From: a virus
Virus record (IMG/VR): IMGVR_UViG_3300020055_000004
Strand: one strand, 5' to 3'
DNA length: 64,000 nt
Shown: positions 10,601-57,184 of the stretch, piece by piece
Layout: the number at the start of each line of letters is the position of its first letter
Numbering within the stretch: position 1 is the stretch's first letter
Position numbers and translations under genes: made by a program
Notes under the pieces: generated by a model
What the model was told of the DNA's origin: nothing
The model's database searches: none
The model's input: the letters and a program-made list of their open reading frames with translations, nothing else

Positions 10601-11976
10601 TTGCGCAAGCAAGTGATGCTAGTGTTAGTGCGATCGGTGAAAGAACTATTGTACAAACAGCTGATAATATTCCTGTTAATTCTGCTTCTGTATCAGGTAT
10701 TAGTGAACGTCAGATTACACAAACCGCTGATAATTTACCAGCTAAGAGTAATCATACATTATCAGGTGTCGGTGAAAGACAAATAGAAAGTACAGCTGGT
10801 ATTTTAGGCATTATTAATGGATCAACTTCTGGTATAGGTTTACGTAGTATTACATCTACATCAGGAGCACTTGCTCCGACTACAACACCAAGTGTATCAT
10901 CACCGGGTGAACGTACTATCACACTATATGTTGGCACAGCTGTAGCTACAGATGCTAGCTTAGTAGGTATTGTCGAAAGAACTATTGTACAGACAGCTGA
11001 TAATCTACCTGTTAACACTGGTTCAATAAGTGGTACAGGTATAATTGAAACATCAGCGACTGGTGTTTTAGGTATTACTGATAGTTCTGTATCTGGTATT
11101 GGTGAACGACAAATTGTAATTACTTCTGGAATATCACAAGCAGAAGATGCATCGGTCAACAGTGTCGGTGAAAGACAAATAGATGAGACTTCCGGAAGCT
11201 TGGTTGCTGATAATGCCGTCGTCAATAGTATTGGCGAAAGACAAATTACGCAAACAGCCGATAATATTCCTGTTAATACTGGATCTACTTCTGGTATTGG
11301 TGAAAGACAAATTGTTTCTACAAGTGGTAATTTAACGCCGTCCACTGTACCTATTGTATCATCACCCGGTGAACGTATCATTACAACATACAGTAGTGCT
11401 GTTGTTGCAACTACTCCTCCTGAAACAAGTGGTATTGGTGAGAGAACTATTAATCTTACGGATGGTGTATCTCAATCAGAGATATCACAAGTAAATGGTA
11501 TTGGTGAAAGAGAAATAACCAAGACCGCTGATGATGCTCCTACACTTTACTCGCAAGTTGTGGGTAATGTAATTAGAGAAGTTAAATCTGTTGTTGCAGT
11601 CGGTGGAATAGAAAACAGTGTTGTTAACGGTAATGGTGAAGTTGAAGTTCGAGGTCAAGGTTTTGCCGGTATTACAAATTCATCGGTATCTGGTATTGGT
11701 GAAAGAGAAGTAAATACTGAAAACGGTTCAGGCAATCTAGTAAACGCTGGAATTGATAATGCAGTCGTAGGCCAAGGTCTTAAGTCGTATAATATTGCAT
11801 TACAAGCTACGACAGGGCCGTCAGTATATGGTCTAGGTGCAAGAATAACAGACTTTGCTCAGCTAGTTCGTGTAACAGATACGGGCGAATCTACTATTAC
11901 TACTAGTTTATCTGACGAAGATCAAATTGTTACATATAAAGAAAAAGAATACATTAAGAAAATAACAGTAGCATAA
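7660..11976 (+). CDS. giant modular repeat protein, putative fibre/whisker
   Basis: roughly 55-60 repeats of 22-23 aa anchored on G-E-R-[QT] or G-L-R-T; lies directly upstream of gp13. Confidence 0.7.
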   Translation: MSDLTRVIYVDDGTPASSDLYVTPHGYVEKSEEAGHGFVGITNASTSGVGERQVKRTAGVLGITNGSTSGIGERTVKSTSGSLTASTGPSVSSPGERSVVSYSTAVVATTPPSSSGIGERQIDQTSGSLAQAGNASLSSTGERQVKRTAGVGGIANGSTSGVGERQVKRTAGVLGIANGSTSGVGERQVKRTAGILGIASGSTSGIVERQVKRTAGVLGIANGSTSGVGERQVKRTAGVLGIANGSTSGVGERQIDQTSGSLAQAGDASSSGIGERQVKRTAGVLGITNGSISGIGERQIDQTSGSLAQAGNASLSGVSERTITQTADNLPAKSNHTLVGIGERQIVSTSGSLTASTVGSVSSPGERTVVSYSTAVVAQNGSTTGVGERQIDQTSGSLAQAGNASLVGIAERQITQTADNLPTNTGSTSGVGLAGKDVKVGILGIANSESSGIGERQITQTADLSGFAAGSTSGTGLRTIKSTSGSLEASTGPVISSPGERIITTYSSAVVAQDGSTVGIGERQITQTADNLPAKSDHTLVGSGLRTITQTADLSGFAAGSTSGIGLRTIKSTSGSLLASTGPSVSSPGERTITTYSSAVVAQDGSTSGTGLRTVTQTADNLPAKSNHTLVGTGLRTITQTADLSGFATGSTAGTGLRTILQTSDNIPINTGSTTGIGERQIITNSGLDGYQVVTGSISSVGERTITQTADLSGFAEGSTSGTGLRTIVQTADNLPTNTGSTTGTGTIETLAVGILGIANSSASGTGLRTVVTTDGSLTPSTIPVVSSPGERIITTYSSAVVATTPPELDGVGERQITQTADNLPAKSDHTLVGIVERQIIQTADNLPAKSNHTLSGTGERQITQTADLSGFATGSTSGTGERQINQTADITGYDISSVNAIGERTVVQTADNLPTNTGSTTGIGISGKVGSGQLTASTLGSTSGIGERQIVSTSTSLQASNASVSSDIGERQIDQTSGNLAQASDASVSAIGERTIVQTADNIPVNSASVSGISERQITQTADNLPAKSNHTLSGVGERQIESTAGILGIINGSTSGIGLRSITSTSGALAPTTTPSVSSPGERTITLYVGTAVATDASLVGIVERTIVQTADNLPVNTGSISGTGIIETSATGVLGITDSSVSGIGERQIVITSGISQAEDASVNSVGERQIDETSGSLVADNAVVNSIGERQITQTADNIPVNTGSTSGIGERQIVSTSGNLTPSTVPIVSSPGERIITTYSSAVVATTPPETSGIGERTINLTDGVSQSEISQVNGIGEREITKTADDAPTLYSQVVGNVIREVKSVVAVGGIENSVVNGNGEVEVRGQGFAGITNSSVSGIGEREVNTENGSGNLVNAGIDNAVVGQGLKSYNIALQATTGPSVYGLGARITDFAQLVRVTDTGESTITTSLSDEDQIVTYKEKEYIKKITVA
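8281..8412 (+). repeat. perfect 66-bp tandem duplication inside the repeat gene
   Basis: 8281-8346 is identical to 8347-8412. Confidence 0.9.
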
Positions 11977-12010
11977 ATAAATTTATTAAAGCTAAAACGG
12001 AGCACATTCG

Positions 12011-12754
12011 ATGGCAGTTCCATCCACACGAGACGAGTTTAAAGAGTATTGTCTAAGATCACTAGGCAAGCCCGTCATCGAAATTAATGTAGCAGACGAG
12101 CAGGTCGAAGATAGAATCGATCAAGCTCTACGTTTTTTCTGGGATTATCATTTCGACGGCACAGAAAAAATCTACTATAAAATTTTAGTTACTCAACAAA
12201 TTAAAGATGATGGATATGTAGATCTGCCCGAGAATATTATCGGCGCCGTACGGTTGTTTCCGATGGGTGCACTTGGTACTTCATCAGGAGATATATTTAA
12301 TATTCGATATCAAATCGCATTAAACGATCTATACACTCTTACTAACATTGCTCTTATAGATTATTATATGACAATGGAACATCTCGCGATGGTTCAAGAA
12401 ATACTTGTTGGTAAACCACAAATAAGATATAATCGTCATCGTAATCGTTTACATATAGACGAAACAAAACAAGATTTAAGAGTAAATGAATATCTTATAT
12501 TGGAAGCATATGAAATTGTTGATCCTGCTACATACACGGATGTATGGTCAGACCGATGGTTACAGTATTATACATCACAACTTATTAAAAGACAATGGGG
12601 TACAAATCTTACTAAGTTCGAAGGACTACAACTTCCAGGTGGTGTAACTTTTAATGGTAGACAAATATATGATGATGCTCAGACTGAGATCTCTAAACTA
12701 GAAGAAGAGATGATTAACAATTACAGCTTGCCTGTAATGGATATGATTGGATAA
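12011..12754 (+). CDS. gp13: neck protein gp13
   Basis: YCLRSLGKPVIEINV..QWGTNLTKF..LPGGVTFNG; synteny. Confidence 0.92.
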   Translation: MAVPSTRDEFKEYCLRSLGKPVIEINVADEQVEDRIDQALRFFWDYHFDGTEKIYYKILVTQQIKDDGYVDLPENIIGAVRLFPMGALGTSSGDIFNIRYQIALNDLYTLTNIALIDYYMTMEHLAMVQEILVGKPQIRYNRHRNRLHIDETKQDLRVNEYLILEAYEIVDPATYTDVWSDRWLQYYTSQLIKRQWGTNLTKFEGLQLPGGVTFNGRQIYDDAQTEISKLEEEMINNYSLPVMDMIG

Positions 12755-12797
12755 AGAGCATAGCTCTATTATACTCAAAAAATAGGATTTGTACACA

Positions 12798-13529
12798 GTG
12801 GCAACCAATTTATACTTCAATAATTTTAATAGTACATCTGAACAAAGTCTAATTGAAGACCTTGTTATCGAGTCTATTAAAATTTATGGCCATGATCTAT
12901 GGTATTGTCCACGTACAATAGTAGCCAAAGATGATATCCTAAACGAAGATCCGTTATCAACATACAATGATTCATATCAAATCGAAATGTATATCAAAAA
13001 TGTTGAAGGATTCGAAGGTGAAGGTGATTTCTTATCTAAATTCAATATTCAGATTCGAGACGAGATTACATTTACTGTTGCTAGAAAAGTATATCAAGAA
13101 ACCGTTGGAGACTTCGAAGATAATGATCGGCCATTTGAAGGTGATCTTATTTTTATGCCATTAACTAATAAAGTATATCAAATCAAGTTTGTTGAACATG
13201 AGCCGGTATTCTATCAAAATGGTGCACTACAAATGTTTGATATCAGGTGTGAATTGTTCGAATACAGCAATGAAGATTTGAATACAGGTTTACCATATGT
13301 AGATAATCTCGAAATCATTCATTCATTATCTGCAGACGAACTGGATGGTCTTACATACGATGCTAACAATAATATTATTATTGATCCTGATACAGGTCGA
13401 CCAGTAGGATTAGATAGCAACTGGAATCCTGATGATCCGTATGCAGACAATAGTTCATTCCAAGTAAGTGCTAATTCATTCATTGATTTTACGGAACGAG
13501 ATCCATTCAGTGAAGGCGGTAGATACTAA
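12798..13529 (+). CDS. gp14: neck protein gp14 (GTG start; alternative start 12789)
   Basis: EQSLIEDLVIESIKIYG..FLSKF..RPFEGDLI..FTERDPFSE. Confidence 0.92.
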   Translation: MATNLYFNNFNSTSEQSLIEDLVIESIKIYGHDLWYCPRTIVAKDDILNEDPLSTYNDSYQIEMYIKNVEGFEGEGDFLSKFNIQIRDEITFTVARKVYQETVGDFEDNDRPFEGDLIFMPLTNKVYQIKFVEHEPVFYQNGALQMFDIRCELFEYSNEDLNTGLPYVDNLEIIHSLSADELDGLTYDANNNIIIDPDTGRPVGLDSNWNPDDPYADNSSFQVSANSFIDFTERDPFSEGGRY

Positions 13530-14626
13530 TGTTTGGACGTACTTTTTATCACGATACTCTGCGTAGATATGTTATCTTATTTGGTACATTATTCAATGAT
13601 GTTTATATTAATCGCGAAGACGAGAATGGCAACGTAAAACAGGTCATTAAAGTTCCTCTTGCATATGGACCTCGAGAAAAGTTTCTCGCGAGGATAGAAG
13701 GAATAGAATCGAATCGTGATCCATTACAACAGCCATTTTCAGTTGTATTGCCTCGCATGGGTTTCGAAATTACAGGTTTTAATTATGCACCTGAACGAAA
13801 ATTGCCTACCCGAAATAAATTTAAGATTGAAGATATTGATGGTGATGGCGACCGTCGTGTCTCAATCTATAATCCAGTTCCCTATGATATTCAATTTAGT
13901 TTGTCCATTTTTGTAAAGAACACGACAGATGGTACTAGAATTATTGAACAAATACTTCCATACTTTACACCTGAATGGACATCAACAGTATTACTAACTG
14001 AAACTCCTGAAGTTAAATTGGATATACCACTTGTTTTAACTGGAACAAGTCAAGATGATGTATATGAAGGTTCTTTTGAAGATCGCCGCGCCTTGATATG
14101 GACACTCGATTTTACAATGAAAGGTTATTTCTATGGTCCAGAATATAAAAGTGATGTAATTAAATTATCTAATACACAAATATTTGATTCATCATTGTAT
14201 GATGATATAGATCAATCAATTAACAATGTTGAAGTAGCTTCACGTTTACTCGCTGAACCTGCCATATTAGCTAATAATTCTCCTACTGTTTTCTCAGATA
14301 TTAATGCCGAAACTGCTACAGCTGTTGCCGTGATTAGTAGTGGGAGTGTAACAGAAATTGTACTTACTAATATTGGTTATGGATATAGTGACACACCAGC
14401 AACTATTACTATTGATGGTAATGCTACTGCAACGGCCGTAATGGGTAATGGATATAATATAGATAGAATAGTAATTACTGATGGTGGCTCTGGATACACT
14501 GAAACACCTACCGTAACAATATCTGCACCTGACTTAGTATCGATAGCAAATACGGCAGCTATTGATTCTGAATCTACTTATGGTGTTGCAGAAGTGAATA
14601 TAGGTCCATTCCCTGATGAAGGATAA
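13529..14626 (+). CDS. gp15: tail sheath stabiliser/completion protein gp15 with C-terminal extension
   Basis: FYHDTLRRYVILFGTLFND..VPLAYGP..LPRMGFE..EQILPYFTP. Confidence 0.92.
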   Translation: MFGRTFYHDTLRRYVILFGTLFNDVYINREDENGNVKQVIKVPLAYGPREKFLARIEGIESNRDPLQQPFSVVLPRMGFEITGFNYAPERKLPTRNKFKIEDIDGDGDRRVSIYNPVPYDIQFSLSIFVKNTTDGTRIIEQILPYFTPEWTSTVLLTETPEVKLDIPLVLTGTSQDDVYEGSFEDRRALIWTLDFTMKGYFYGPEYKSDVIKLSNTQIFDSSLYDDIDQSINNVEVASRLLAEPAILANNSPTVFSDINAETATAVAVISSGSVTEIVLTNIGYGYSDTPATITIDGNATATAVMGNGYNIDRIVITDGGSGYTETPTVTISAPDLVSIANTAAIDSESTYGVAEVNIGPFPDEG

Positions 14627-15038
14627 AGATATGAAGCATGATATATTGAATGATGTTTTGAATATGAATAGTGGACAACTCATCGAACAAGAAGAAAAAC
14701 TACCTACAACTTATCGTCCAAGTCTCGAAACAGATAAAGAAATCGAGAACGATACAAAATATGTTCGTCAGAATTTTTATGATCTTATCGAAAAAGGTCA
14801 TGGTGCAATCGACGAATTGCTTGCAGTAGCAGATCAGTCTCAACACCCCAGAGCATATGAAGTCTTAGCTAATATGATCAAAACAATGGGTGATATGAAT
14901 AATGATCTGCTAGCCATGCATGAAAAGAAACAAAAACTTACAGGCGAGAAACCAGAAAAACCAGATACTGTTAATAATAACTTGTATGTAGGTAGTACGA
15001 GTGATTTGCTGAAGTTATTAAATAAAGAAAATGAGTGA
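14616..15038 (+). CDS. gp16: terminase small subunit gp16
   Basis: HPRAYEV..NNNLYVGSTSDLLKLL. Confidence 0.9.
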   Translation: MKDKDMKHDILNDVLNMNSGQLIEQEEKLPTTYRPSLETDKEIENDTKYVRQNFYDLIEKGHGAIDELLAVADQSQHPRAYEVLANMIKTMGDMNNDLLAMHEKKQKLTGEKPEKPDTVNNNLYVGSTSDLLKLLNKENE

Positions 15039-16686
15039 AATTCAAGATATTATAGATTATCGATCTTATCTCGGTAATGTAAATCTTAAGCGCAAGGGTG
15101 TTACAATTGAATGGACCGAAGATATGGTCCAAGAGTTTGTGAAGTGTGCTAAAGATCCAATATACTTCTCAGAAAAATATATACAAATTGTACATGTTGA
15201 TCATGGATTGATTCCGATAAATTGCTATGACTATCAAAAAGAAATCATTAAAAAAACCACCAATAATAGAAGAGTCTGTGTTGTTACGTCACGGCAGGCA
15301 GGTAAAACTACTACTGCTGTATGTCTTATACTTCATTACATATTGTTTAACGACCATAAGCTCGTGGCTCTCCTCGCTAACAAAGGAGATGCAGCTAGGG
15401 AAATATTGGACAGAATTAAAACTGCGTATGAAGCGTTACCGAAATGGCTTCAACAAGGAGTCATCGAATGGAACAAAGGATCAGTAGAATTTGAAAACGG
15501 ATCCAAAATCATTGCGGCTGCTACTTCTTCTTCTGCTATTCGAGGCAAATCCGTATCCTTCCTATACATTGATGAGACAGCTTTCGTGGAGAATTGGGAC
15601 GAATTCTTTGCCTCAGTATTTCCAACAATCTCATCCGGAACTAGTACTAAAATCCTTCTTACATCCACACCAAATGGATTAAATCACTTCTATAAAACAT
15701 GTGAAGGTGCCAAAGCAGGCAAAAATGGTTACGAGTTCGTGCAGGTTATGTGGCATGACGTCCCGGGCCGTGATGAAAAATGGAGAGAAGAAACACTCGC
15801 TGCGATGGACTTTGATACAGAAAAGTTCGCGCAGGAAATGGAATGTGAATTCCTAGGTTCATCGGGTACACTCATATCGGGATGGAAATTAAAGCAACTT
15901 GTATATAGAGAAGCTATTAAAGAAGTCGGTGGTATAAACATATATGAAGAACCGATGCAAGAAGGCAACTATGTGATAGTTGTTGACGTCAGTAGAGGTA
16001 AAGGATTAGACTATTCTGCCTTTCAGGTCGTTGATATATCAGAGATGCCGTACAGACAGGTTGGAACATATCGTAATAATATGATCACACCTATAGATTA
16101 TGCTGCAGCTGTGCATAGCGCGGCAAAGTATTACAATGAAGCCAATATATTGGTTGAAGTCAATGATATTGGAGAACAGGTAGCTTCTATTCTTTTCGAA
16201 GAATATGAATACGAAAATATGTTACTCACTGAAAATAATGGACGTGAAGGAAAACGTCTATTATCAGGTGTAGCAGGATTCAGCGGAAGAGCAGATAAAG
16301 GTATACGTACTACTAAATCTGTAAAATCTGTTGGTTGTTCAATGATAAAATTATTAGTAGAACAAAATCAAATTATAATTAATGATTTCGAAACAATACG
16401 TGAATTTTCGACATTTAGTCAAAAAGGTACATCATGGGAAGCAGAACCGGGCAATCACGACGATTTAGTGATGTGTTTAGTTCTCTTTGGTTGGTTGTCA
16501 AACCAGAAATTCTTTAAAGAATTGACTGATATAAATACGGTTATCAATCTCAAAGAAATGAATGAAGAAAAAGTCTTTAGTGAGCTGGTTCCATTCGGTA
16601 TCATTGACGACGGGCAAGACGTACACGAGCAAGAATCTCAAGTAAAGACTGCCAGAGGTGGAGATGACTATAGTTGGCTAATGTAG
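15031..16686 (+). CDS. gp17: terminase large subunit gp17
   Basis: SRQAGKTT Walker A, YIDETAF Walker B, STPNG, VDVSRG and HDDLVM nuclease motifs. Confidence 0.97.
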   Translation: MSEIQDIIDYRSYLGNVNLKRKGVTIEWTEDMVQEFVKCAKDPIYFSEKYIQIVHVDHGLIPINCYDYQKEIIKKTTNNRRVCVVTSRQAGKTTTAVCLILHYILFNDHKLVALLANKGDAAREILDRIKTAYEALPKWLQQGVIEWNKGSVEFENGSKIIAAATSSSAIRGKSVSFLYIDETAFVENWDEFFASVFPTISSGTSTKILLTSTPNGLNHFYKTCEGAKAGKNGYEFVQVMWHDVPGRDEKWREETLAAMDFDTEKFAQEMECEFLGSSGTLISGWKLKQLVYREAIKEVGGINIYEEPMQEGNYVIVVDVSRGKGLDYSAFQVVDISEMPYRQVGTYRNNMITPIDYAAAVHSAAKYYNEANILVEVNDIGEQVASILFEEYEYENMLLTENNGREGKRLLSGVAGFSGRADKGIRTTKSVKSVGCSMIKLLVEQNQIIINDFETIREFSTFSQKGTSWEAEPGNHDDLVMCLVLFGWLSNQKFFKELTDINTVINLKEMNEEKVFSELVPFGIIDDGQDVHEQESQVKTARGGDDYSWLM

Positions 16687-44428: not shown

Positions 44429-44657
44429 TAAGTGGAACGGTGAAGCAGATCCAATCGGAGATGTAGTATTCGAAAGAATTATGCAACTATATAATGGTGA
44501 AAGAGTTGAAAAACCTTTACATTATCCCTCGATTGATGTAGAATGGTTAATTAAGGATATGAGAAGTATATGTGAACAGTGTTGGTTTCTAGACATTTCA
44601 CTAAAACAGCTCATGGATATGGTATATGATGAAATCGCAGGTATAAAAGATGAGTAA
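44415..44657 (+). CDS. small hypothetical protein
   Basis: GGAG SD; overlaps both neighbours. Confidence 0.45.
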   Translation: MAKNDKWNGEADPIGDVVFERIMQLYNGERVEKPLHYPSIDVEWLIKDMRSICEQCWFLDISLKQLMDMVYDEIAGIKDE

Positions 44658-45063
44658 AGATTGGGCAAGTGATATCGCATCCATGCATGATAAGTATGGT
44701 GTCCGCGAGTGGGTAAAGAATAATCCTGAGAAGTTGAAAGAGTTTCTCGCATTTCGTTTGAAGTTTGTACAAGAAGAATTCCAAGAAACATTGGAAGCTG
44801 CAGTCAATAATGATCCAGAAGAGCTGGTAGATGGTCTGATCGATCTTTGTGTTGTTGCAATAGGTACCCTTGATGCATTTGGTATCGATGCTCACAAAGC
44901 TTGGGATGTGGTCTATGCAGCTAATATGGCCAAAGAGATTGGTGTTAAAGAATCTCGGCCGAATCCACTTGGTCTACCAGATCTAGTCAAGCCAGAAGGA
45001 TGGCAAACACCATCACATGCCGGCAATCATGGTATCTGGGAAGAGATGGCCAAGTCTGAATAA
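44650..45063 (+). CDS. all-alpha NTP pyrophosphohydrolase (MazG/PRA-PH-like), candidate dCTPase
   Basis: EEFQE..ELVDGLIDL..ANMAK..DLVKPEGW. Confidence 0.8.
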   Translation: MSKDWASDIASMHDKYGVREWVKNNPEKLKEFLAFRLKFVQEEFQETLEAAVNNDPEELVDGLIDLCVVAIGTLDAFGIDAHKAWDVVYAANMAKEIGVKESRPNPLGLPDLVKPEGWQTPSHAGNHGIWEEMAKSE

Positions 45064-45123: not shown

Positions 45124-45771
45124 ATGAATTATCAAATTGCTTATCAGGAACTCGGCGCCACTAAATTTTTACGTACTCATGGTCGCGATGTAGTAGAAAT
45201 CCTAGGACATAATGTTACTGTAAATAAAATCAATCGGTTTTTAGGTTCTCGTGGTAGTAATGTCTCGGATTTCTTTTGGCGAAATCGAAATCGATTGCAC
45301 ATCTATGGCATGTCTGTCGTCCAAGTAAATGAGAAATGCCGAATTAAAATTAATGCTATTGGCCCCCGCGGCAACGTATTAAATTTTGTTGAAAATACTA
45401 ATAAGCAACCTAATAAATTGGAGCCAGAAATGAAAGAATCTCTTAAGGTTCTGCAAGAATGTGCTGAAGTACAAGTTAAAAAGTCAAACGACTATCAAAA
45501 TGAATTCTCCCGCATTCGTCAAGCAGATTACTATCCTCGTGGTATCGCAACCATTACAGATCTAATCTATGCTAAAGTTCTTCGTATGCAATCAGTCATT
45601 GAAGCTAGTGAACGAGATCCTAACTATGAACCGAACTTCGAATCAATCGAAGATTCAGCTAAAGATCTAATCAACTATGCATCTTTTGTTGTTGCATATA
45701 TGCGTGGTAAGATGGATGGACAAGAATCTAACCGTGACTTTCTTAATAGGATCGTAAATGATTCAGAATAA
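45124..45771 (+). CDS. nucleotide-modification-associated domain (Nmad1/DUF1599-like) with N-terminal extension
   Basis: KKSNDY..K..R..ESIEDSAKDLINYA; internal GGAG+ATG at 45430. Confidence 0.7.
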   Translation: MNYQIAYQELGATKFLRTHGRDVVEILGHNVTVNKINRFLGSRGSNVSDFFWRNRNRLHIYGMSVVQVNEKCRIKINAIGPRGNVLNFVENTNKQPNKLEPEMKESLKVLQECAEVQVKKSNDYQNEFSRIRQADYYPRGIATITDLIYAKVLRMQSVIEASERDPNYEPNFESIEDSAKDLINYASFVVAYMRGKMDGQESNRDFLNRIVNDSE

Positions 45772-46435
45772 AGTAGAAGACATTCGTTGTTACTTTAAAC
45801 AAGCTCTTCACGAGAAACGTTTCACCACAGATAAGACTGGTCAAAAGACTATAGAACTTATTGGTGCTTCATTTCTCGCTGACGAGCCATCTATCTTTGG
45901 TAAACCGAATCAAAAATATATCAAGGCCGAAATCCAGTGGTATATGTCTCAGTCTACCAATATTAATGACATATATAGTAGAGATCGTAAACCACCAGAA
46001 GCATGGCAATATAGTGCTGATGCAAATGGTGAAATCAATTCTAATTACGGCTATCTCATTTATAACGAACGCTTTGGTAATCAATATAAGCAAGTTCGTG
46101 ATGAGATGATGAAGAATCCATACGGTCGCCGTGGTACTATGATCTACAATCGACCATCAATATGGCACGAGTACAACGAGGGTGGCAAGTCAGACTTTAT
46201 TTGTACCAATGCTGTAAGCTACTATCTTCGAGATCATAAGCTACATGCAGTGGTTCAGATGCGCTCTAATGATGTAGTCTTTGGTTATAAGAATGACTAT
46301 GCATGGCAACGATTTGTACTTGAAAATCTTGCATATGATATTAGCCTACCACAACACGATGTTGGTGTTGGTACAATCACGTGGCAAGTACAAAATCTTC
46401 ACGTATATGAACGACACTTTGATTTGGTAGAATGA
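45758..46435 (+). CDS. gp42: dCMP hydroxymethylase
   Basis: DKTGQKTIELIGASFLADEP, GEINSNYG, DFICTN, MRSNDVVFGYKNDYAWQ, LHVYERHF closely follow T4 gp42 as recalled, including the cytosine-specifying Asp. Confidence 0.9.
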   Translation: MIQNKVEDIRCYFKQALHEKRFTTDKTGQKTIELIGASFLADEPSIFGKPNQKYIKAEIQWYMSQSTNINDIYSRDRKPPEAWQYSADANGEINSNYGYLIYNERFGNQYKQVRDEMMKNPYGRRGTMIYNRPSIWHEYNEGGKSDFICTNAVSYYLRDHKLHAVVQMRSNDVVFGYKNDYAWQRFVLENLAYDISLPQHDVGVGTITWQVQNLHVYERHFDLVE

Positions 46436-46848
46436 GAGTAGGATTTACTGCTTCAGCATTTGATCTATTACACGCCGGACATGTCTCAATGCTAAGAGAG
46501 GCAAAGACACAGTGTGACTATTTGATTTGTGGTTTACAAGTAGATCCTGGTCTCGATCGATTAGAGAAAAACAAACCAATACAAACTTTACCGGAAAGAT
46601 ATATACAATTGTCAGCTGTAAAATATGTTGATGAGATTATACCTTATGAAACAGAAATTGATTTGAAGGATATCTTAGAAACATTAAAAATCGATGTACG
46701 TATTCTTGGTGACGAGTATCGTAATCTAGATTTTACTGGCAAAGAGATATGCCAACAACGTGGCATTGAATTATATTTCAATCAACGAGATCATAGGTTT
46801 TCAACAAGTGATCTAAGAAAAAGAGTAACGTTATGTACGGAGTCTTAA
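46432..46848 (+). CDS. cytidylyltransferase (TagD/glycerol-3-phosphate CT-like)
   Basis: FTASAFDLLHAGH (HxGH), YVDEII, STSDLR. Confidence 0.85.
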   Translation: MRVGFTASAFDLLHAGHVSMLREAKTQCDYLICGLQVDPGLDRLEKNKPIQTLPERYIQLSAVKYVDEIIPYETEIDLKDILETLKIDVRILGDEYRNLDFTGKEICQQRGIELYFNQRDHRFSTSDLRKRVTLCTES

Positions 46849-49926: not shown

Positions 49927-50794
49927 TCATGTAATCGATGGCGTTAATAAAGACGTAGGAGTTTTTGGCTATGAAGCAGCAAGAGAATATTATCTATCTT
50001 TGTGCGAAGGATGGGAACCGTACAACCCCGAACCGGTTGTACGAGAACACGATGGCATTCGAGTCGTACGAGATGACCTTATCGTGGGGACAAAAGCGAG
50101 AGCTGGAGATCTCCTTGCAAGTCGATGCCCCTCAGACACAATTGTATACTGTCAACCTCGCACCGGACTCGCCGGAGTTTCCATATTGGACTGTGCAAAA
50201 CGATATAATAAAGACGTAATACTATTCATGCCATCGTCTCAGCGCGTCTCTTTACATCAGGCATGCTGCATTGAACGTGGCGCTAAACCTATCTTTAAAC
50301 GTATCGCCGCTATGCCAAATTTAAACAAAGCAGCTAAAGAATATGCAGAGAAACACGGATACTTTTTTGTCCCACTCGGACTTAGACATGAATTGGCGAC
50401 TGCAGCTATAGTACACACTGCTATACAAATACCAGAACCTGAAGAAGTATATGTGGCTACATCGACAGGTGTACTTAGTAGGGCATTGCAAATCGCGTGG
50501 CCAAGAGCTAAGTTTACGAGTATCGCAGTGGCGAGGAATCTTAAAGCCGGAGAATTAGGAAGAGCAGATGTCATATCAGAACCACTCGCTTTTACAGCAT
50601 CTGAAAAGAAACAAAATTTACCTCCATTTCCTTCGATTGATACGTACGATGGAAAAGTCTGGAAGTACATTCCAAAAAACACGGGTCGGGATATTCTGTT
50701 TTGGAATGTTGGTACTGAACCTAGTTTACAAGACCATAACATATATGATAGAATAGATTCATATCGCGATTGGGAGAAAAAAGATGTTGCGTAG
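49913..50794 (+). CDS. PLP-dependent enzyme, fold type II (phage DNA-modification type)
   Basis: VRDDLIVGTKAR (Schiff-base Lys), VATSTG, DTYDGK, FWNVG. Confidence 0.8.
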   Translation: MSHNNHVIDGVNKDVGVFGYEAAREYYLSLCEGWEPYNPEPVVREHDGIRVVRDDLIVGTKARAGDLLASRCPSDTIVYCQPRTGLAGVSILDCAKRYNKDVILFMPSSQRVSLHQACCIERGAKPIFKRIAAMPNLNKAAKEYAEKHGYFFVPLGLRHELATAAIVHTAIQIPEPEEVYVATSTGVLSRALQIAWPRAKFTSIAVARNLKAGELGRADVISEPLAFTASEKKQNLPPFPSIDTYDGKVWKYIPKNTGRDILFWNVGTEPSLQDHNIYDRIDSYRDWEKKDVA

Positions 50795-51887
50795 TGGTTT
50801 AGTAGCTACACCGTTTATTACTATTTCACGCCAAATGACCAGCCATCGTGCTGCTCAAGGTGTAATATATGCAGATCAACTTTCTGAGGCCAATATTGGT
50901 ACAATTAAAGTAAACATGACAGGTGATCAGTATGTCTCCGATTTTTGTGATTTCGATGATCTTTATGTGTATCATGGTAATGATTGGTCTGGTAACGTTA
51001 ATCTCTTTGGCGGCCTCAAAAACTTCCCATATATTGAGAATTTTGTCAATTTCTCTCGTTTCGACGGCCGTGTGTATAGCCTTGTGGTCGACATGCCTGA
51101 CTATTATGGTATCATGAAAGAAAAGTTTGATAAAGCCAGAGAGAAAGGACAAGAATGGAATACTTTATGGGATGGCATTGATTGGGATAATCTGAAGCGC
51201 ATGTGTGAAACTGCAGTGACAATCAATCCTAATGATCTACGACATTATCCTCGCATGGCAATTGGTGACAGCCATGCCATTTGTATGTACCGACCAGGCT
51301 GGTCAAATCTATCAGTGCCATTTAAAACACTACACGGCGCATTAAAAGAAGGTCTTGAATCTTTTATTCCGAAAGATAGATGTTTTACTGATCTAGAATT
51401 TTATTTTGGCAACATTGATGTTCGTCATCATCTTTGTAGACAAGATGATCCAATTCTTGCTACTAAACAACTTGTTGCTCGTTATATGGAACAAGCACAT
51501 GCCATATCACAAAAATATAGTTGCCGTGTCAAGATCTATGAACTCTTGCCTATCGAAGACGAATCACGATCGATTCCAAAAACTGGTTGGTATAAAGGCA
51601 CTCCATTTTATGGCTCGCGCCAAGAGAGAAATGATATTCGTAAGTTGTTTAAAAATGAAGTAATGAAGCGTTGTACTGATGAAGTTCAGATATATGAATG
51701 GGTTGGCGAAATGATTAATTCAAAAGGCGAACTTGGTTTTGAATACATGGAGAAACCACAGTCGGTGCACTTATCTAGACGCTGGTATCCACATTGGCAA
51801 GGATATGAGTGGAGTCATGCTCCGTATATTGAATATATACCTACAGCAGAACGTGAACAATTAACGCTTGAGGATTTCTTTTCGTAA
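50784..51887 (+). CDS. two-domain protein: BGT-like N-terminus plus SGNH-like C-terminus
   Basis: IGDSH, FGNIDVRHH and SVHLS SGNH-type blocks; DFDDLYVY..NLFGG..VYSLVVD N-domain. Confidence 0.5.
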   Translation: MLRSGLVATPFITISRQMTSHRAAQGVIYADQLSEANIGTIKVNMTGDQYVSDFCDFDDLYVYHGNDWSGNVNLFGGLKNFPYIENFVNFSRFDGRVYSLVVDMPDYYGIMKEKFDKAREKGQEWNTLWDGIDWDNLKRMCETAVTINPNDLRHYPRMAIGDSHAICMYRPGWSNLSVPFKTLHGALKEGLESFIPKDRCFTDLEFYFGNIDVRHHLCRQDDPILATKQLVARYMEQAHAISQKYSCRVKIYELLPIEDESRSIPKTGWYKGTPFYGSRQERNDIRKLFKNEVMKRCTDEVQIYEWVGEMINSKGELGFEYMEKPQSVHLSRRWYPHWQGYEWSHAPYIEYIPTAEREQLTLEDFFS

Positions 51888-53095
51888 TGAAGCATGCAAC
51901 TATTATACCACTGATCGGAGGTGAAGTACTTGCCTCTGAGCAAGTCTTTGGTCATCGACCAGATTATATCTTATCTTATAATGCTTTTCAGGCAAATGAA
52001 GAACATCTACTAAATTATTGGAATCATGAGGTACCGTACTACGTTCTAGATGAAGGAGATCGCCATCCGCACTCAGTAGACGTAGTGTCCAGTGTATGTC
52101 CTTGTGCTGGCTTGTCATTGTTCAGTACGCGTTATGGAGAGGACAACAAAAACAATCGTTGGATGATTGAAACGGCTAAGTATGTTCTTGGCGAGATCAA
52201 GCCTCTTGTATTTTGGGGAGAGAATGCCCCAACTTTCACGGGTAAAATCGGTGAACCTATTCGAAACCAATTGATTCAAATTGGTAAGGAGAATGGCTAT
52301 GTCATGTCGATGTATAAAACGAAAAGTCTGTTACACGGTATACCACAAACGCGCGAGCGAACATTCTACTTCTTTTGGAAAGGTACACAAGTTCCGGTAT
52401 TTGACTACTATCGAAGAGAAATGCAAACTATCGAGGACCTTATCCTCTCCGTCGAGCGCGATCCTAATGATCCGATGTCCGAATGCATAAATCGAAACAA
52501 ACCAACCGACAATCCATTTTACAAATATATTTTGGAGGAGATTCATGGCGGTATTAGCCATCGCGACCACTTTGACCTTATCGATATCACTGATCCTAAA
52601 ACACCGAATTACTTGGACGTCTATAGCCTTATTGAGTCTCATAAGCATGATTACGCTCGCGTTGCTAAATGGTTAGAGGAACGTCAATATCATCGTGAAT
52701 CACAGCGTGCATTGCGAATGTATGATAAGCTAGAATCTGGTGGTAATATTATGCGCAGAGGTACTTTGTTGCCTAAAGGTCATATTGGATCTTTTGTAGG
52801 TCACTATCCACAAATGCTAACTCATCCTCATGAAGATCGATATATAACCTTTAGAGAGGCGATGACAATTATGGGTATGCCAAGTGACTATCAGCTTCTT
52901 AATCCGAAAGGTAGCTTCAATCATATATGTCAGAATGTTCCGTTTCAAACTGCAGCTGATATGGCAACCGAAGTAAAAGCTGTATTAAATGGAGAACGAG
53001 AATTGATTGACGCGCGCGTATCATTACAACATAATACATCAAAAAAATTAGAAATTTTAGATAGAGAAGTATCTACACTAGATGCATTTTTATAG
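51887..53095 (+). CDS. DNA cytosine-C5 methyltransferase-like protein with atypical SAM motifs
   Basis: CPCAGLS (IV), ENA (VI), GIPQTRER (VIII), RYITFREAMTIMGMP (IX); motif I reads IIPLIGG. Confidence 0.8.
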   Translation: MKHATIIPLIGGEVLASEQVFGHRPDYILSYNAFQANEEHLLNYWNHEVPYYVLDEGDRHPHSVDVVSSVCPCAGLSLFSTRYGEDNKNNRWMIETAKYVLGEIKPLVFWGENAPTFTGKIGEPIRNQLIQIGKENGYVMSMYKTKSLLHGIPQTRERTFYFFWKGTQVPVFDYYRREMQTIEDLILSVERDPNDPMSECINRNKPTDNPFYKYILEEIHGGISHRDHFDLIDITDPKTPNYLDVYSLIESHKHDYARVAKWLEERQYHRESQRALRMYDKLESGGNIMRRGTLLPKGHIGSFVGHYPQMLTHPHEDRYITFREAMTIMGMPSDYQLLNPKGSFNHICQNVPFQTAADMATEVKAVLNGERELIDARVSLQHNTSKKLEILDREVSTLDAFL

Positions 53096-53124
53096 TGTAC
53101 AAATATTTTAAAACAGTGTAGAAT
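53096..53124 (+). promoter_or_regulatory. sigma70-like promoter TGTACA-N17-TAGAAT
   Basis: motif and spacing. Confidence 0.75.
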
Positions 53125-53147: not shown

Positions 53148-54122
53148 ATGGAACTTAATATTCCAGTACAAGAGTTACAAAAATATAAAATCTTTTTGGC
53201 GACACCAATGTATGGTGCACAATGTTCTGGAATGTATGCTAGATCGTTGGCTGAATTGACAACAACATGTCAGCGATATGGCATTCCATTACAATTTTAT
53301 TTTCTATTCAATGAATCGTTAGTTACACGAGCACGTAATTATTGTGTAGATGAATTTATGCGATCTGATTGTACACATCTTATGTTCATTGATTCAGATA
53401 TTCATTTTAAGGCACATGATGTAGTATCTCTATTAGGAATGATGCATCAATATCCTGAGATGGATGTATGCTGTGCTCCTTATCCGAAGAAAACAATTGC
53501 GTGGGAAAAAATTAGTGAAGCAGTAAAACAAGGTGTAGCTGATGAGAATCCAAATGTTCTAGAAAACTTTGTTGGTGATTATGTCTTCAATCCTATTAGA
53601 CAAAAAAATGGTGAAAATTATATTAAACTAACTCAACCTGCAGAAGTAGCTGAGGGTGGTACAGGCTTCATGATGATCAAGAAGTCAACCTTTGAAAAAT
53701 ATAAAGAAACATATCCTCAATTCATGTATCGTCCTGATCATGTTCGAACAGCAAACTTTGATGGAAGTACTGAGATCATGGCATACTTCGATGCTCTCAT
53801 TGATGATAAGTCACAAAATCTTGTACCTGAAATCAAAGCATTCTTTAAAAAGAATCCAAATGCAAAAAATAGAGATGTCATCAACTTTATTGAAGATAAG
53901 AAAAATGGCATCGATCAAAAGTCATATTCGAATAGATACCTGTCCGAAGATTACATGTTTTGTTATAATGTAAGACGTGCTGGTATGAAAGTATTCATGT
54001 GTCCTTGGATGGAACTCAAACATATGGGCGCATACGTATTTGGTGGTTCATTGGCAGCTATTGCATCTATTGGTGCAGCGGCTACAGCTGATCCCTCTAA
54101 ACTTGGTGAAAAGAAAAAATAG
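53148..54122 (+). CDS. GT-A fold glycosyltransferase-like protein
   Basis: ATPMYG, ESLVTRARN, LMFIDSD (DxD), GTGFMMI, LSEDYMFC. Confidence 0.7.
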   Translation: MELNIPVQELQKYKIFLATPMYGAQCSGMYARSLAELTTTCQRYGIPLQFYFLFNESLVTRARNYCVDEFMRSDCTHLMFIDSDIHFKAHDVVSLLGMMHQYPEMDVCCAPYPKKTIAWEKISEAVKQGVADENPNVLENFVGDYVFNPIRQKNGENYIKLTQPAEVAEGGTGFMMIKKSTFEKYKETYPQFMYRPDHVRTANFDGSTEIMAYFDALIDDKSQNLVPEIKAFFKKNPNAKNRDVINFIEDKKNGIDQKSYSNRYLSEDYMFCYNVRRAGMKVFMCPWMELKHMGAYVFGGSLAAIASIGAAATADPSKLGEKKK

Positions 54123-54133
54123 GAAACTATACT

Positions 54134-54790
54134 ATGAAACTTAATGCTCGATCTGTACAGGTCTTGAAAAACTTCTCAACAATTAATCCTTCGATTCAAT
54201 TTCGCGAAGGTAATGCGTTGAAAACAATCTCGCCTAATAAGACTATCATGGCAAAAGCAAATCTCGAGGATAATATTCCTCAGGACTTTGCAATCTATGA
54301 TTTGTCTAGATTTCTTGGTGTATCATCTTTGTTTGCAGATCCGGACTTTCAACTTGAAGATCGTACTGTAGTGATTACATCACCGGGTCGTAAGGTAAAT
54401 TACACCTTTGCAGATCCTAACACTATTGTTGCACCACCTAACAAAGATATCGATATTGGTGACGCTGATGTATCATTTGAACTCAATCAAGAAAACTTCG
54501 CCGAAATTATGAAAGCTCTTGGTGTAATGTCATTTCCTGAGTTGGTGGTTGCTGGTGAAGATGGTCGTATTATTTTACGAGCCACTGATACTAAGAATCC
54601 AAGTTCAGACAAATATGATATTGAAGTTGGTGAGACTGATCGAACATTCACCGCAGTATTCAAGACAGAAAATGTCAAGATCTTACCAGATAATTATCGT
54701 GTAAGTTTGTCATCGCGTGGCATCTCACACTTCGCTTCAGACGATGTTGAATACTGGATCTCAATTGAATCCAACTCAACATTCGACTAA
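54134..54790 (+). CDS. gp45: sliding clamp gp45
   Basis: LKNFSTINPSI..FAIYDLSRFL..YWISIE. Confidence 0.93.
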   Translation: MKLNARSVQVLKNFSTINPSIQFREGNALKTISPNKTIMAKANLEDNIPQDFAIYDLSRFLGVSSLFADPDFQLEDRTVVITSPGRKVNYTFADPNTIVAPPNKDIDIGDADVSFELNQENFAEIMKALGVMSFPELVVAGEDGRIILRATDTKNPSSDKYDIEVGETDRTFTAVFKTENVKILPDNYRVSLSSRGISHFASDDVEYWISIESNSTFD

Positions 54791-55241: not shown

Positions 55242-56480
55242 ATGGGTACGAAAAGGAGTTACAAACCGGAGGCAGTAGATAAGCTACGAGGATCAGTACA
55301 AATTGATCATACACTCGCGAGGCTTGGAGCAAGGAAGCTGAGACAACTATTCGAAGAAAACGAATATATTAACACATTTGGTGCATACAATGGGCAACAA
55401 GCTGTACAACATGTCAAGGCAGGATTAAAAGCAATCTATTGTTCTGGTTGGCAGGTAGCAGCATCTCAGAACTCGGCCGGCGAAGTATATCCGGATCAAT
55501 CCTTGTATCCTGTAAACTCTGTACCTGATGTTGTTCGAAATATTAATAATGCGTTTAGGCGACAAGATCAAATTGATGTATTAAATGGTGGAGATGGTTT
55601 TGATTTTGCACCTATTATCGCAGATGCAGAAGCTGGATTTGGAGGAGTACTAAACGCATATGAACTGGCACGAAATCTCATTGAAGCCGGTGCTGCAGCT
55701 GTGCATTTCGAAGATCAGCTCGCTTCTGAAAAGAAATGCGGACACCTCGGTGGTAAAGTACTTATTCCGACTAGCAGTGCTGTTCGTAATCTTAACGCCG
55801 CTCGACTTGCTTCTGATGTGGCTGGTACTGACACAGTCATCATTGCCAGAACAGATGCAGAATCTGCTAAACTCCTTTCATCTGACGTAGATGCAATGGA
55901 TAACAAATATATCAAGAGATATGGTGGTCAAGGATCCGCTACAATGCGATCTCGTACATCAGAAGGTTTCTTTGAAATTAATGGCGGTTTAGATTTTTGT
56001 ATAGAACGAGGTCAGAGATATGCAGAGTACGCTGACCTGATATGGTGTGAAACCTCGAAGCCTTGTCTTAAGGAAGCAAAAAGATTTGCTGACGGCGTAC
56101 GTGGCGCATATCCTGATCAAATGCTAGCATATAATTGTTCGCCTTCTTTTAATTGGAAGAAAGCAATTCCAAATGATCAAGAACTTGCAGAGTTTCAACG
56201 TGAGTTAGGTAAGTTAGGATTTAAGTTTCAGTTTATTACATTAGCTGGCTTTCATGCAACAAACTATGCTGTTTTTGACTTCGCTCGACGATATAAAGAA
56301 GATGGTATGTTTGCCTATTCATTATTGCAAGAAGATGAGTTTAACAGTGAAATCTTTGGATATACTTCAACCAAACACCAACAAGAAGTTGGAGTCGGAT
56401 ACTTTGATGCAATATCTAACGTGCTTGGTTCTTCGTCAACGGCTGCACTCAAAGGTTCCACAGAAGAAGAACAGTTTTAA
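55242..56480 (+). CDS. aceA: isocitrate lyase
   Basis: [54 protein letters not shown]. Confidence 0.96.
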
Positions 56481-57184
56481 TGGATTTGATTAAGAGCAAG
56501 TTTGACATTAAGGGTTGGACTCTCTTAACAAATTTTTTGACACCAGAAGAACACGAATATTATCTCGATATATGTGATCATATTCTTCTTAATAGAATTC
56601 AGCCGTCATATAAATGGGCGCTCAACTCAAATGGTACTATAAACAAATTACACGGTGCTTGTGAGACCGTCCCTGCATTTCGAAAATTGGCCAGTCATCC
56701 ATCTTTGATTCGTCAGGCTAAAAGCTTATTGCCATTTGAAGAAGAAATGGATATCTATATCAGTAAGTTCTTCCCTATGCAGCCAAAAGCAATTTCTACT
56801 TTGATGCATCAAGATAATTATTTTTTTCGTGGAGATCCTCAAAAAATATTATCATGTGCTGTATATCTTCAAAATACATCAACAGAAAACGGATGTCTGC
56901 GTGTTGTTGAAGGTAGTCATTTGAGAGGTATATTTCCTCATAATATTGATGAGGAAGGAATTGCTCAGTGGATCGACCAGCGAGAACTTACAGATTATAA
57001 AATAATAGAACTTAATTTAAAAGCACCTTATGCTGTATTTTTTAACATAAATCTAGTGCACGGCTGCAGTATGAATATGACTGATTCAACTCGATACAGT
57101 TTAGCATGGGAATATGTAAATAAAACCGACAATAATTTGACGGTTTCCGCTGAAAAATGGTGTGATAGAATTTCTGTCTTATAA
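56480..57184 (+). CDS. PhyH-family 2OG-Fe(II) dioxygenase
   Basis: HQD, ENGCLRVVEGSH, LVHGC, R. Confidence 0.85.
   Translation: MDLIKSKFDIKGWTLLTNFLTPEEHEYYLDICDHILLNRIQPSYKWALNSNGTINKLHGACETVPAFRKLASHPSLIRQAKSLLPFEEEMDIYISKFFPMQPKAISTLMHQDNYFFRGDPQKILSCAVYLQNTSTENGCLRVVEGSHLRGIFPHNIDEEGIAQWIDQRELTDYKIIELNLKAPYAVFFNINLVHGCSMNMTDSTRYSLAWEYVNKTDNNLTVSAEKWCDRISVL

Follow-up and report, generated by a model that had tools for sequence, protein, structure and literature searches.

The 64,000-nucleotide stretch of viral DNA analyzed here (the window) belongs to IMG/VR record IMGVR_UViG_3300020055_000004, a T4-like virus represented by 163.7 kb of sequence (~91% complete). At positions 51887–53095 it encodes a 402-residue protein with the fold of the cytosine-C5 DNA methyltransferases (C5-MTases), hereafter referred to as the methyltransferase-like (MT-like) protein. 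The residues that activate and recognize cytosine in these enzymes are retained, those that would contact S-adenosylmethionine (SAM) have apparently been exchanged for others that are conserved throughout the family, and the protein ends in a tail resembling that of the phage DNA polymerase. We put at roughly 0.55 the probability that the MT-like protein is an active enzyme whose chemistry runs via 5-methylene-cytosine, which employs a partner other than canonically bound SAM, and which is tethered to the sliding clamp. The fuller proposal, to which we would give slightly less than even odds, is that it represents the first natural enzyme with a C5-MTase fold to give up SAM, riding on the clamp and, via 5-methylene-cytosine, either hydroxymethylating stray cytosines or swapping the hydroxyl group of 5-hydroxymethylcytosine (5hmC). 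What is new here is that a C5-MTase fold is combined with a cofactor pocket that is both different and conserved, and with a putative replisome tether; our literature search found no publication describing this clade.

A C5-methyltransferase homologue with its catalytic motifs retained

An earlier note on this DNA, made from the sequence alone, had assigned a C5-MTase fold to open reading frame 51887–53095, and the assignment stands. The frame is open, and its product matches PF00145 (C5 cytosine DNA methylase) over residues 61–341 with an E-value of 4.6e-16 and 59.6 bits (cut-off 22), the only PF00145 match in the genome. The best PDB match by sequence is weak (3g7u, E 4e-6). The AlphaFold2 model, based on 138 members of the family, has a mean pLDDT of 95.9 and a pTM of 0.93, and its top structural matches in the PDB are all cytosine-C5 methyltransferases, including M.HaeIII (1dct; Z 27.5, root-mean-square deviation 2.9 over 278 residues), M.HhaI (Z 25.8, with model residues 1–370 on HhaI 12–325), and CmoX (8yf3; Z 23.2). 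The MT-like protein is thus a genuine C5-MTase homologue with the two-domain fold. The locus itself gave no match to the phage collection by megablast. The gene and its motifs are as follows:

51887–53095 (+): C5-methyltransferase-fold enzyme (MT-like) with an apparently rebuilt cofactor pocket; open frame of 402 aa, PF00145, AlphaFold2 model
51885–51889 (+): TAATG stop/start overlap from the upstream gene to the MT-like gene; read directly
51902–51922 (+): motif I variant IIPLIGG (residues 6–12) at the FxGxGG site; from conservation and the model (β1 3–6, helix from 12)
51974–52003 (+): motif II region, Ser30-Tyr31...Phe34...Asn37-Glu38, with a conserved Ser at the site of the ribose-binding Glu; Ser30 closes β2 in the model
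52100–52105 (+): catalytic Pro72-Cys73 (motif IV, in VCPCAGLS); invariant Cys73 falls on HhaI Cys81 in the family profile
52220–52228 (+): motif VI, Glu112-Asn113-Ala114 (in GENAP), on HhaI E119-N120-V121; Glu112 invariant
52346–52360 (+): motif VIII, Q154-T-R156-E-R158 (in PQTRER), on HhaI Q161/R163/R165; Arg156 and Arg158 invariant
52928–52942 (+): motif X variant C348-Q-N-V-P352; Gln349 invariant; register C on G, Q on N, and N on S/A

All the motifs quoted in the earlier note are present (IIPLIGG at 6–12, VCPCAGLS, GENAP, PQTRER, and CQNVP at 348–352), as is the TAATG coupling to the upstream gene. No variation is seen at Cys73, Glu112, Arg156, or Arg158 across 138 sequences reaching to 28% identity. 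Judging from these motifs, the machinery for activating and recognizing cytosine is complete, which makes covalent chemistry at C6 of (hydroxymethyl)cytosine in DNA plausible.

A cofactor pocket that appears rebuilt rather than eroded

The picture is different at the SAM site, where the motifs deviate from those of the canonical enzymes. In the model, strand 1 comprises residues 3–6, a helix starts at residue 12, and strand 2 comprises residues 28–30. In the structural alignment with M.HhaI, in which model residue 1 corresponds to HhaI residue 12, Ile7 falls on Phe18, Leu9 on Gly20, Gly11-Gly12 on Gly22-Gly23, and Ser30-Tyr31 on Glu40-Trp41. Motif I therefore carries Leu at the site of the first Gly and Ile/Val at the site of the Phe of FxGxGG, and the acidic residue that follows β2 (HhaI E40) is replaced by Ser30, a mapping taken from the model and not from a ligand complex. 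In place of GN(S/A)V, motif X reads CQNVP. The earlier note had correctly reported motif X as altered; the register, however, is more likely one in which C348-Q-N-V-P lies on G-N-S/A-V-P, as found in two independent alignments, so that invariant Gln349 replaces the cofactor-contacting Asn. Overall, HhaI F18, G20, E40, N304, and S305 become I/V, L, S, Q, and N in the MT-like clade. In the model, other conserved residues would thus take the place of all the SAM contacts to the methionine moiety, to the ribose, and to one adenine face.

Alignments of 130–138 family representatives provide the conservation figures. Residues P8, G11, G12, C73, S77, E112, R156, R158, M329, and Q349 are invariant, and conservation reaches 90% or more for L9 (96%), P25, S30, F34, N37, D65, N350, and V351. 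Pro352 is conserved to 88–90% depending on the alignment, and the values for N350, V351, and P352 span 88–96%. Around motif II, S30 is conserved to 90%, an aromatic residue at position 31 to 96%, F34 and N37 to 93% each, and D/E38 to 97%. Among the best 150 representatives of the 50%-identity clusters, which extend to 30% identity, those whose N-terminus is intact all have the PLxGG type of motif I; h-h-P-L-[IV]-G-G (h, hydrophobic) is found nearly always if the protein is full-length, and [CAST]QNVP in most cases.

The earlier note had called the SAM pocket "eroded", a description that does not fit these data. Because the altered residues are nearly invariant in ~130 representatives, to 28% identity, the pocket reads as rebuilt and under selection. 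Conservation of this kind suggests that the pocket receives one particular ligand, other than SAM bound in the canonical manner.

The earlier note had regarded a methylase as hard to explain here, and judged by the SAM-pocket motifs we agree that the MT-like protein is unlikely to be an ordinary SAM-dependent C5-MTase, that is, one whose SAM site is unusual yet works and which acts on residual or site-specific unmodified cytosines. The above-threshold PF00145 score, the complete fold, and the largely retained aromatic residue at the W41 site and D60-like Asp are what one would expect of such an enzyme, and most PF00145 proteins are indeed methylases. Nevertheless, four SAM contacts are replaced clade-wide (G20 by Leu, E40 by Ser, N304 by Gln, and F18 by Ile/Val), and a genome built from 5-hydroxymethyl-dCTP would offer little substrate. 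To our knowledge, an acidic residue after β2 is near universal in the C5-methylase class, which further counts against an ordinary methylase.

A putative sliding-clamp-binding tail

In T4-like phages, the C-terminus of the DNA polymerase is the peptide that binds the gp45 sliding clamp. The polymerase of the phage (L199:454-2991) ends in VSTLEDFFS, the MT-like protein in VSTLDAFL, and the 367-residue protein encoded directly upstream of it in LTLEDFFS. Among 128 family representatives, 54 end in two hydrophobic residues, 25 of these in LF, and in three lineages the polymerase tail and the MT-like tail vary in step:

53069–53092 (+): C-terminal tail VSTLDAFL, putative gp45 sliding-clamp-binding peptide; from its likeness to the polymerase tail
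Window lineage: polymerase STLEDFFS, MT-like STLDAFL
One distant lineage: polymerase TTSLF, MT-like KSII or NSTF
Locus L148: polymerase NLDDW, MT-like QMEEW

These similarities suggest that the MT-like enzyme is likely tethered to the sliding clamp by its tail. Complex prediction for gp45 with MT-like residues 350–402 lends weak support, giving a score of 0.48 against 0.00 for the best control. In the calibration of the tool, the mark that was thereby passed is reached by 58 of 80 solved complexes and by 2 of 110 mismatched pairs, scores of ≤0.60 being obtained for only 7 of the 80. The prediction runs agree in at least 82% of contacts, with a partner pLDDT of ~45, and the pass may reflect likeness to, or memory of, solved clamp–peptide complexes. 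Since its tail also resembles that of the polymerase, the 367-residue protein (50784–51887) may be a second protein of the modification cluster that docks on the clamp. If so, such tails would suggest that phages have a general means of linking base modification to the replication fork.

Association with the hydroxymethylcytosine pathway

The MT-like gene lies in a genome that appears equipped for making 5hmC, with the following genes upstream of it in the window:

44650–45063 (+): MazG/PRA-PH type nucleoside triphosphate pyrophosphohydrolase, candidate dCTPase; PF01503, phrog_671; syntenic in 31 loci
45124–45771 (+): Nmad1 (DUF1599) nucleotide-modification-associated protein, a weak assignment; PF07659 E 1.5e-4, below the family cut-off; syntenic in 37 loci
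45758–46435 (+): gp42-type deoxycytidine monophosphate (dCMP) hydroxymethylase; 52–53% identity to T-even gp42; PDB 1b49 E 5e-71
46432–46848 (+): cytidylyltransferase-like protein of 138 aa; PF01467; between the gp42-type gene and the spanin genes

The gp42-type enzyme retains the catalytic Cys (in FICTN) and the Asp that specifies dCMP (in KNDYAWQ), which, together with its 53% identity to T-even gp42, bears out the view of the earlier note that the window comes from a 5hmC phage. Some T4-like thymidylate synthase (TS) homologues produce 5-hydroxy-dCMP instead (2026 paper, PMC13326640), but the window enzyme is only ~25% identical to these synthases (RB69/HY126 type) compared to 53% for gp42, and this assignment was rejected. 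Pre-replicative formation of 5hmC in the window phage is therefore well supported by sequence, and a role of the MT-like protein in the same pathway is supported by the genomic association described below. The cytidylyltransferase-like gene, which is present in only two related loci, might serve in the modification made by this particular phage, by activating either a sugar-phosphate or a hydroxyl group.

Among close relatives, 82 loci encode MT-like proteins with 52–87% identity; many of these loci are cut by contig ends, so that counts of their neighbours are minima. The gene order in these loci is gp46, MazG, Nmad1, TS homologue, a variable cassette, MT-like, glycosyltransferase-like, and gp45. 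The glycosyltransferase-like gene is found in 67 of the loci, gp45 in 61, and the TS homologue in 57. Rarer partners are the gene for the 367-residue protein (23 loci) and a pair of aGPT-Pplase-like genes with a pyridoxal phosphate (PLP) enzyme (8 loci).

More distant relatives, which were searched as whole records, have 35–49% identity to another subclade. A TS-family gene is present in 21 of 32 such records, including all nine with a completeness of at least 45%; the 11 records without one are 7–26% complete. All 20 of the divergent TS homologues carry the catalytic Cys, an Asp at the site of T4 D179, and an Asp three residues before the Cys, a pattern that reads as being of the hydroxymethylase type. 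Within 6 kb of 80 distant MT-like genes, NAD-dependent sugar epimerases/dehydratases occur at 41 loci, sugar-phosphate nucleotidyltransferases at 19, and glycosyltransferase-like proteins of two kinds at 32 and 17; replication genes are common as well.

Five further lineages combine MT-like relatives with an Asp-type, that is, dCMP-specific, TS homologue: distant T4-like phages, jumbo phages, TIM5 cyanophages, XG4, and Bacillus phage G. In Cyanophage S-TIM54, the annotated "ThyA" (L002:6114-6956, minus strand) is the sole TS-family gene and has Asp at the position of E. coli Asn177 and Cys at that of Leu143. With these changes, the TIM5-like cyanophages may make a C5-modified dCMP instead of dTMP by means of "ThyA"; they also carry annotated DNA glucosyltransferases (PMC10087341). 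Pseudoalteromonas phage XG4 (vB_Psh_XG4) has a TS homologue in its genome, and a nucleotidyltransferase/kinase-like gene and two glycosyltransferase-like genes lie directly upstream of its MT-like copy. In Bacillus phage G, gp301 (L200, L202), annotated as a DNA cytosine methyltransferase, is an outlier of the family with FIFGG, CPCSGLS, and QGVP; it is encoded near the alpha-glucosyltransferase gp306, and the genome encodes an Asn-type ThyA alongside an Asp-type TS homologue.

The earlier note had counted frequent occurrence in phages that lack a dCMP hydroxymethylase as evidence against its idea. This check turned out in favour of the idea: an Asp-type TS homologue is found in every distant record of at least 45% completeness, as well as in the TIM5 phages, XG4, and phage G. 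As a rough baseline, the gp42-like protein of the window matches in only 1340 of 50,697 phage records, and a TS-family gene is absent from two phages whose C5-MTases are canonical.

The gene neighbourhood also bears on the specific function put forward in the earlier note, according to which the MT-like protein would activate 5hmC within DNA in place of a missing kinase, so that two aGPT-Pplase-like proteins and a PLP enzyme could attach an amino acid. The kinase is missing in a narrow sense only, in that a regular-expression search of the modification cluster found no Walker-A motif. Two further observations fit the idea: the MT-like gene is in the same operon-like run as the cassette, and a 393-residue upstream protein resembles clusters with PF18723 (HMUDK helical domain) in 11–36% of their members and PF18724 (amino-acid:DNA-transferase) in 12%. 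However, the cassette is found in only 8 of the 82 close loci, all of which have the MT-like gene, and distant relatives have sugar genes beside them instead, so that standing in for a kinase does not hold up as the general function of the family; the link of the enzyme to the cassette would at most be a lineage-specific add-on. That the two upstream genes are of the aGPT-Pplase kind is in turn no more than a lead: neither PF18723 nor PF18724 was confirmed for the upstream protein in relaxed Pfam searches, PDB sequence searches with the 393-residue protein gave no match, and hardly any similarity is seen between the two supposed paralogues (E 0.04). Moreover, the cytidylyltransferase-like protein could equally supply the leaving group. 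Taken as a whole, this model seems to us rather improbable.

Genes surrounding the MT-like gene

The genes and elements immediately around the MT-like gene are:

50784–51887 (+): coupled upstream gene, 367 aa, phrog_13881; precedes the MT-like gene in 23/82 loci
53096–53124 (+): promoter-like TGTACA-N17-TAGAAT in the 52-bp gap between the MT-like and glycosyltransferase-like genes; read directly
53148–54122 (+): GT-A-like glycosyltransferase candidate, 324 aa, constant downstream partner; phrog_1574 E 3e-62
54134–54790 (+): gp45 sliding clamp; PF09116, phrog_223

The GT-A-like candidate has a weak match to GT21, look-alike clusters assigned to GT2/Anp1, and a DSD motif; PDB sequence searches with it gave no match. 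Directly after the sliding-clamp gene lies a full-length gene of the isocitrate lyase family (55242–56480, +; PF00463 E 1.5e-94), followed by one for a PhyH-type Fe(II)/2-oxoglutarate dioxygenase (56480–57184, +; PF05721 E 3e-21). These two genes are unusual in a T4-like phage and are not syntenic with the MT-like gene in its relatives.

Proposed mechanism

From the observed fold, conserved residues, genomic association, and tail similarity, we infer catalysis, clamp binding, the substrate, and the co-substrate as follows. The MT-like enzyme would act on phage DNA after replication, tethered to gp45 by its polymerase-like tail. A cytosine-type base would be flipped out of the DNA, whereupon Cys73 would attack C6, with Glu112 and Arg156/Arg158 holding the N3/N4/O2 face as in every C5-MTase. 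The rebuilt pocket would most likely hold one common metabolite, and not SAM bound in the canonical way; a common rather than a lineage-specific partner is suggested because the same pocket residues are found in lineages with quite different accessory genes.

The reaction would then pass through an enzyme-bound 5-methylene-cytosine at the DNA level, for which two versions can be envisaged. In the first, which takes up the idea of the earlier note and has in vitro precedent, 5hmC would be dehydrated and another nucleophile would add; an engineered C5-MTase is known to couple aliphatic thiols to 5hmC in DNA (PMC7176277). In the second, cytosines that escape the pre-replicative gp42 route would be hydroxymethylated in the DNA behind the fork, with one-carbon units from, for example, methylene-tetrahydrofolate or formaldehyde. 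The first version fits the abundance of 5hmC but sits badly with glycosyltransferases of the Leloir type, which need a free hydroxyl group. The second, a conjectural hydroxymethylation of stray cytosines, would fit the invariant pocket, the clamp tether, and the existence of zinc-finger-fused, eukaryote-like forms that presumably meet ordinary DNA.

Several points weigh against this proposal. The adenine side of the pocket is partly kept, with an aromatic residue at the W41 site in 96% of the family and Asp55 at a D60-like site in ~70%, and in view of these features the cofactor may contain adenosine or may even be SAM bound differently. Residues 1–28 could not be aligned to canonical enzymes either by HMMER against the PDB or by hhalign against two canonical phage methylases; since sequence profiles miss this region, the mapping of motifs I and II was taken from the predicted structure, and it rests on that model and on alignment ranges rather than on a superposed ligand. 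Much of the co-occurrence described above is synteny within related lineages, and many of the records are fragments. The need of the co-occurring Leloir-type glycosyltransferases for a free hydroxyl group speaks against wholesale replacement of that group. T4 itself needs no such enzyme.

If the pocket does bind a ligand other than SAM, the MT-like family would bring a new type of reaction to the best-studied DNA-modifying fold, and a conserved step would be explained in the 5hmC and glycosyl-5hmC pathways of many marine and jumbo phages. The enzyme could also be put to use for labelling or writing 5hmC in DNA independently of site, which today requires engineered methylases or synthetic cofactors.

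Comparison with known systems

M.HhaI and M.HaeIII (PF00145) share with the MT-like protein the fold, the catalytic Pro-Cys, Glu-Asn, and QxRxR in the same order, a similar size, and a variable region between motifs VIII and IX. The MT-like protein differs from them in having PLIGG instead of FxGxGG, Ser instead of the ribose-binding Glu, and (C/A/S/T)QNVP instead of GN(S/A)VP, as well as a clamp-binding-like tail, and it is found with a dCMP hydroxymethylase and not with restriction enzymes.

A departure from simple methylation has been described for SpCmoX from Synechococcus phage S-B43 (8YF3), a DNA cytosine C5-carboxymethyltransferase dependent on carboxy-SAM (Cx-SAM), which, like the MT-like protein, is a phage C5-MTase homologue changed at the site of HhaI N304 (PMC12783734). 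The choice of cofactor is set by the residue at this site, Arg350 in CmoX (PMC12783734), showing that phage C5-MTase homologues can switch cofactor through it. One could therefore imagine the MT-like protein as a carboxymethyl- or other alkyltransferase that, like CmoX, takes a modified SAM as its cofactor, given that its own N304 site is altered (Gln349) and that the CmoX structure is among its structural matches. This is nonetheless very unlikely. In SpCmoX the contacts to adenosine and ribose are the canonical ones, SPPC and Arg350 are present, and the gene is accompanied by CmoA and an amide ligase (PMC12783734); its F25, E47, F48, and D69 contacts, SPPC, and Arg350 stand against I7, S30, Y31, VCPC, and Gln349 here, and CmoA (TIGR00740) had no match in the 163.7-kb record, which is 91% complete, while control genomes matched. 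Identity with CmoX itself was rejected on the same grounds: VCPC rather than SPPC, Gln349 rather than Arg350, and no CmoA.

A non-catalytic subunit that flips bases or reads DNA and presents 5hmC to neighbouring transferases would agree with the constant pairing with a glycosyltransferase-like gene and the clamp-like tail common to two neighbouring proteins, but the invariance of Cys73, Glu112, Arg156, and Arg158 to 28% identity is hard to explain without catalysis, and we consider this the least probable of the alternatives.

Other systems resemble the proposed SAM-independent enzyme in part. Phage C5-MTase homologues coupled to TET enzymes also feed cytosine hypermodification together with glycosyltransferases, but there SAM-made 5-methylcytosine is oxidized by TET after replication (Burke et al. 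2021, PMC8256090), whereas here a gp42-type enzyme provides 5hmC before replication. Some TET-linked C5-MTase clades were without detectable activity (PMC8256090). A search of the window genome for a TET/JBP dioxygenase (PF12851) gave no match, although the control search gave none either. The cofactor-free side reactions of C5-MTases on 5hmC from the Klimasauskas laboratory (used in PMC7176277) illustrate, as proposed here, that activation at C6 permits exchange at the 5-hydroxymethyl group, but they take place in vitro, with normal or engineered methylases to which thiols are added. The literature searched contained no natural enzyme dedicated to cofactor-free 5hmC exchange, and the MetaGPA paper does not mention methyltransferases. 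Lastly, T4 gp42 and the thymidylate synthase family, which co-occurs with the MT-like protein, likewise use attack of a Cys at C6 and a 5-methylene intermediate, but have an unrelated fold, a free nucleotide as the substrate, and methylene-tetrahydrofolate.

Extent of the family

The MT-like family is large and mostly viral. An exhaustive search of representatives clustered at 50% identity returned 815 clusters at E <1e-3 and 247 at E <1e-30, so that the family comprises at least 247 clusters by the latter threshold. A few long members of 598–1462 residues (P0208, P0184, P0188, and P0215; loci L084 and L085), which come from short marine metagenome or metatranscriptome contigs, retain PLIGG, CPCAGLS, and QNVP and have tails rich in K/E in which a CXXC finger or C2H2-like zinc-finger motifs occur. 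In five long members, the C-terminal extensions matched none of the neighbour proteins, and the only Pfam match in them was one CXXC finger. The long members look eukaryotic or giant-viral rather than phage-derived.

On a 96-kb Logan contig (L086), a family member with 31% identity is flanked, within 7910–16284, by NeuB-like, inositol-monophosphatase-like, HldE-like (PfkB plus cytidylyltransferase), and PNK3P/HAD phosphatase genes, a set that hints at decoration of the DNA of that virus with a nonulosonic acid or a heptose.

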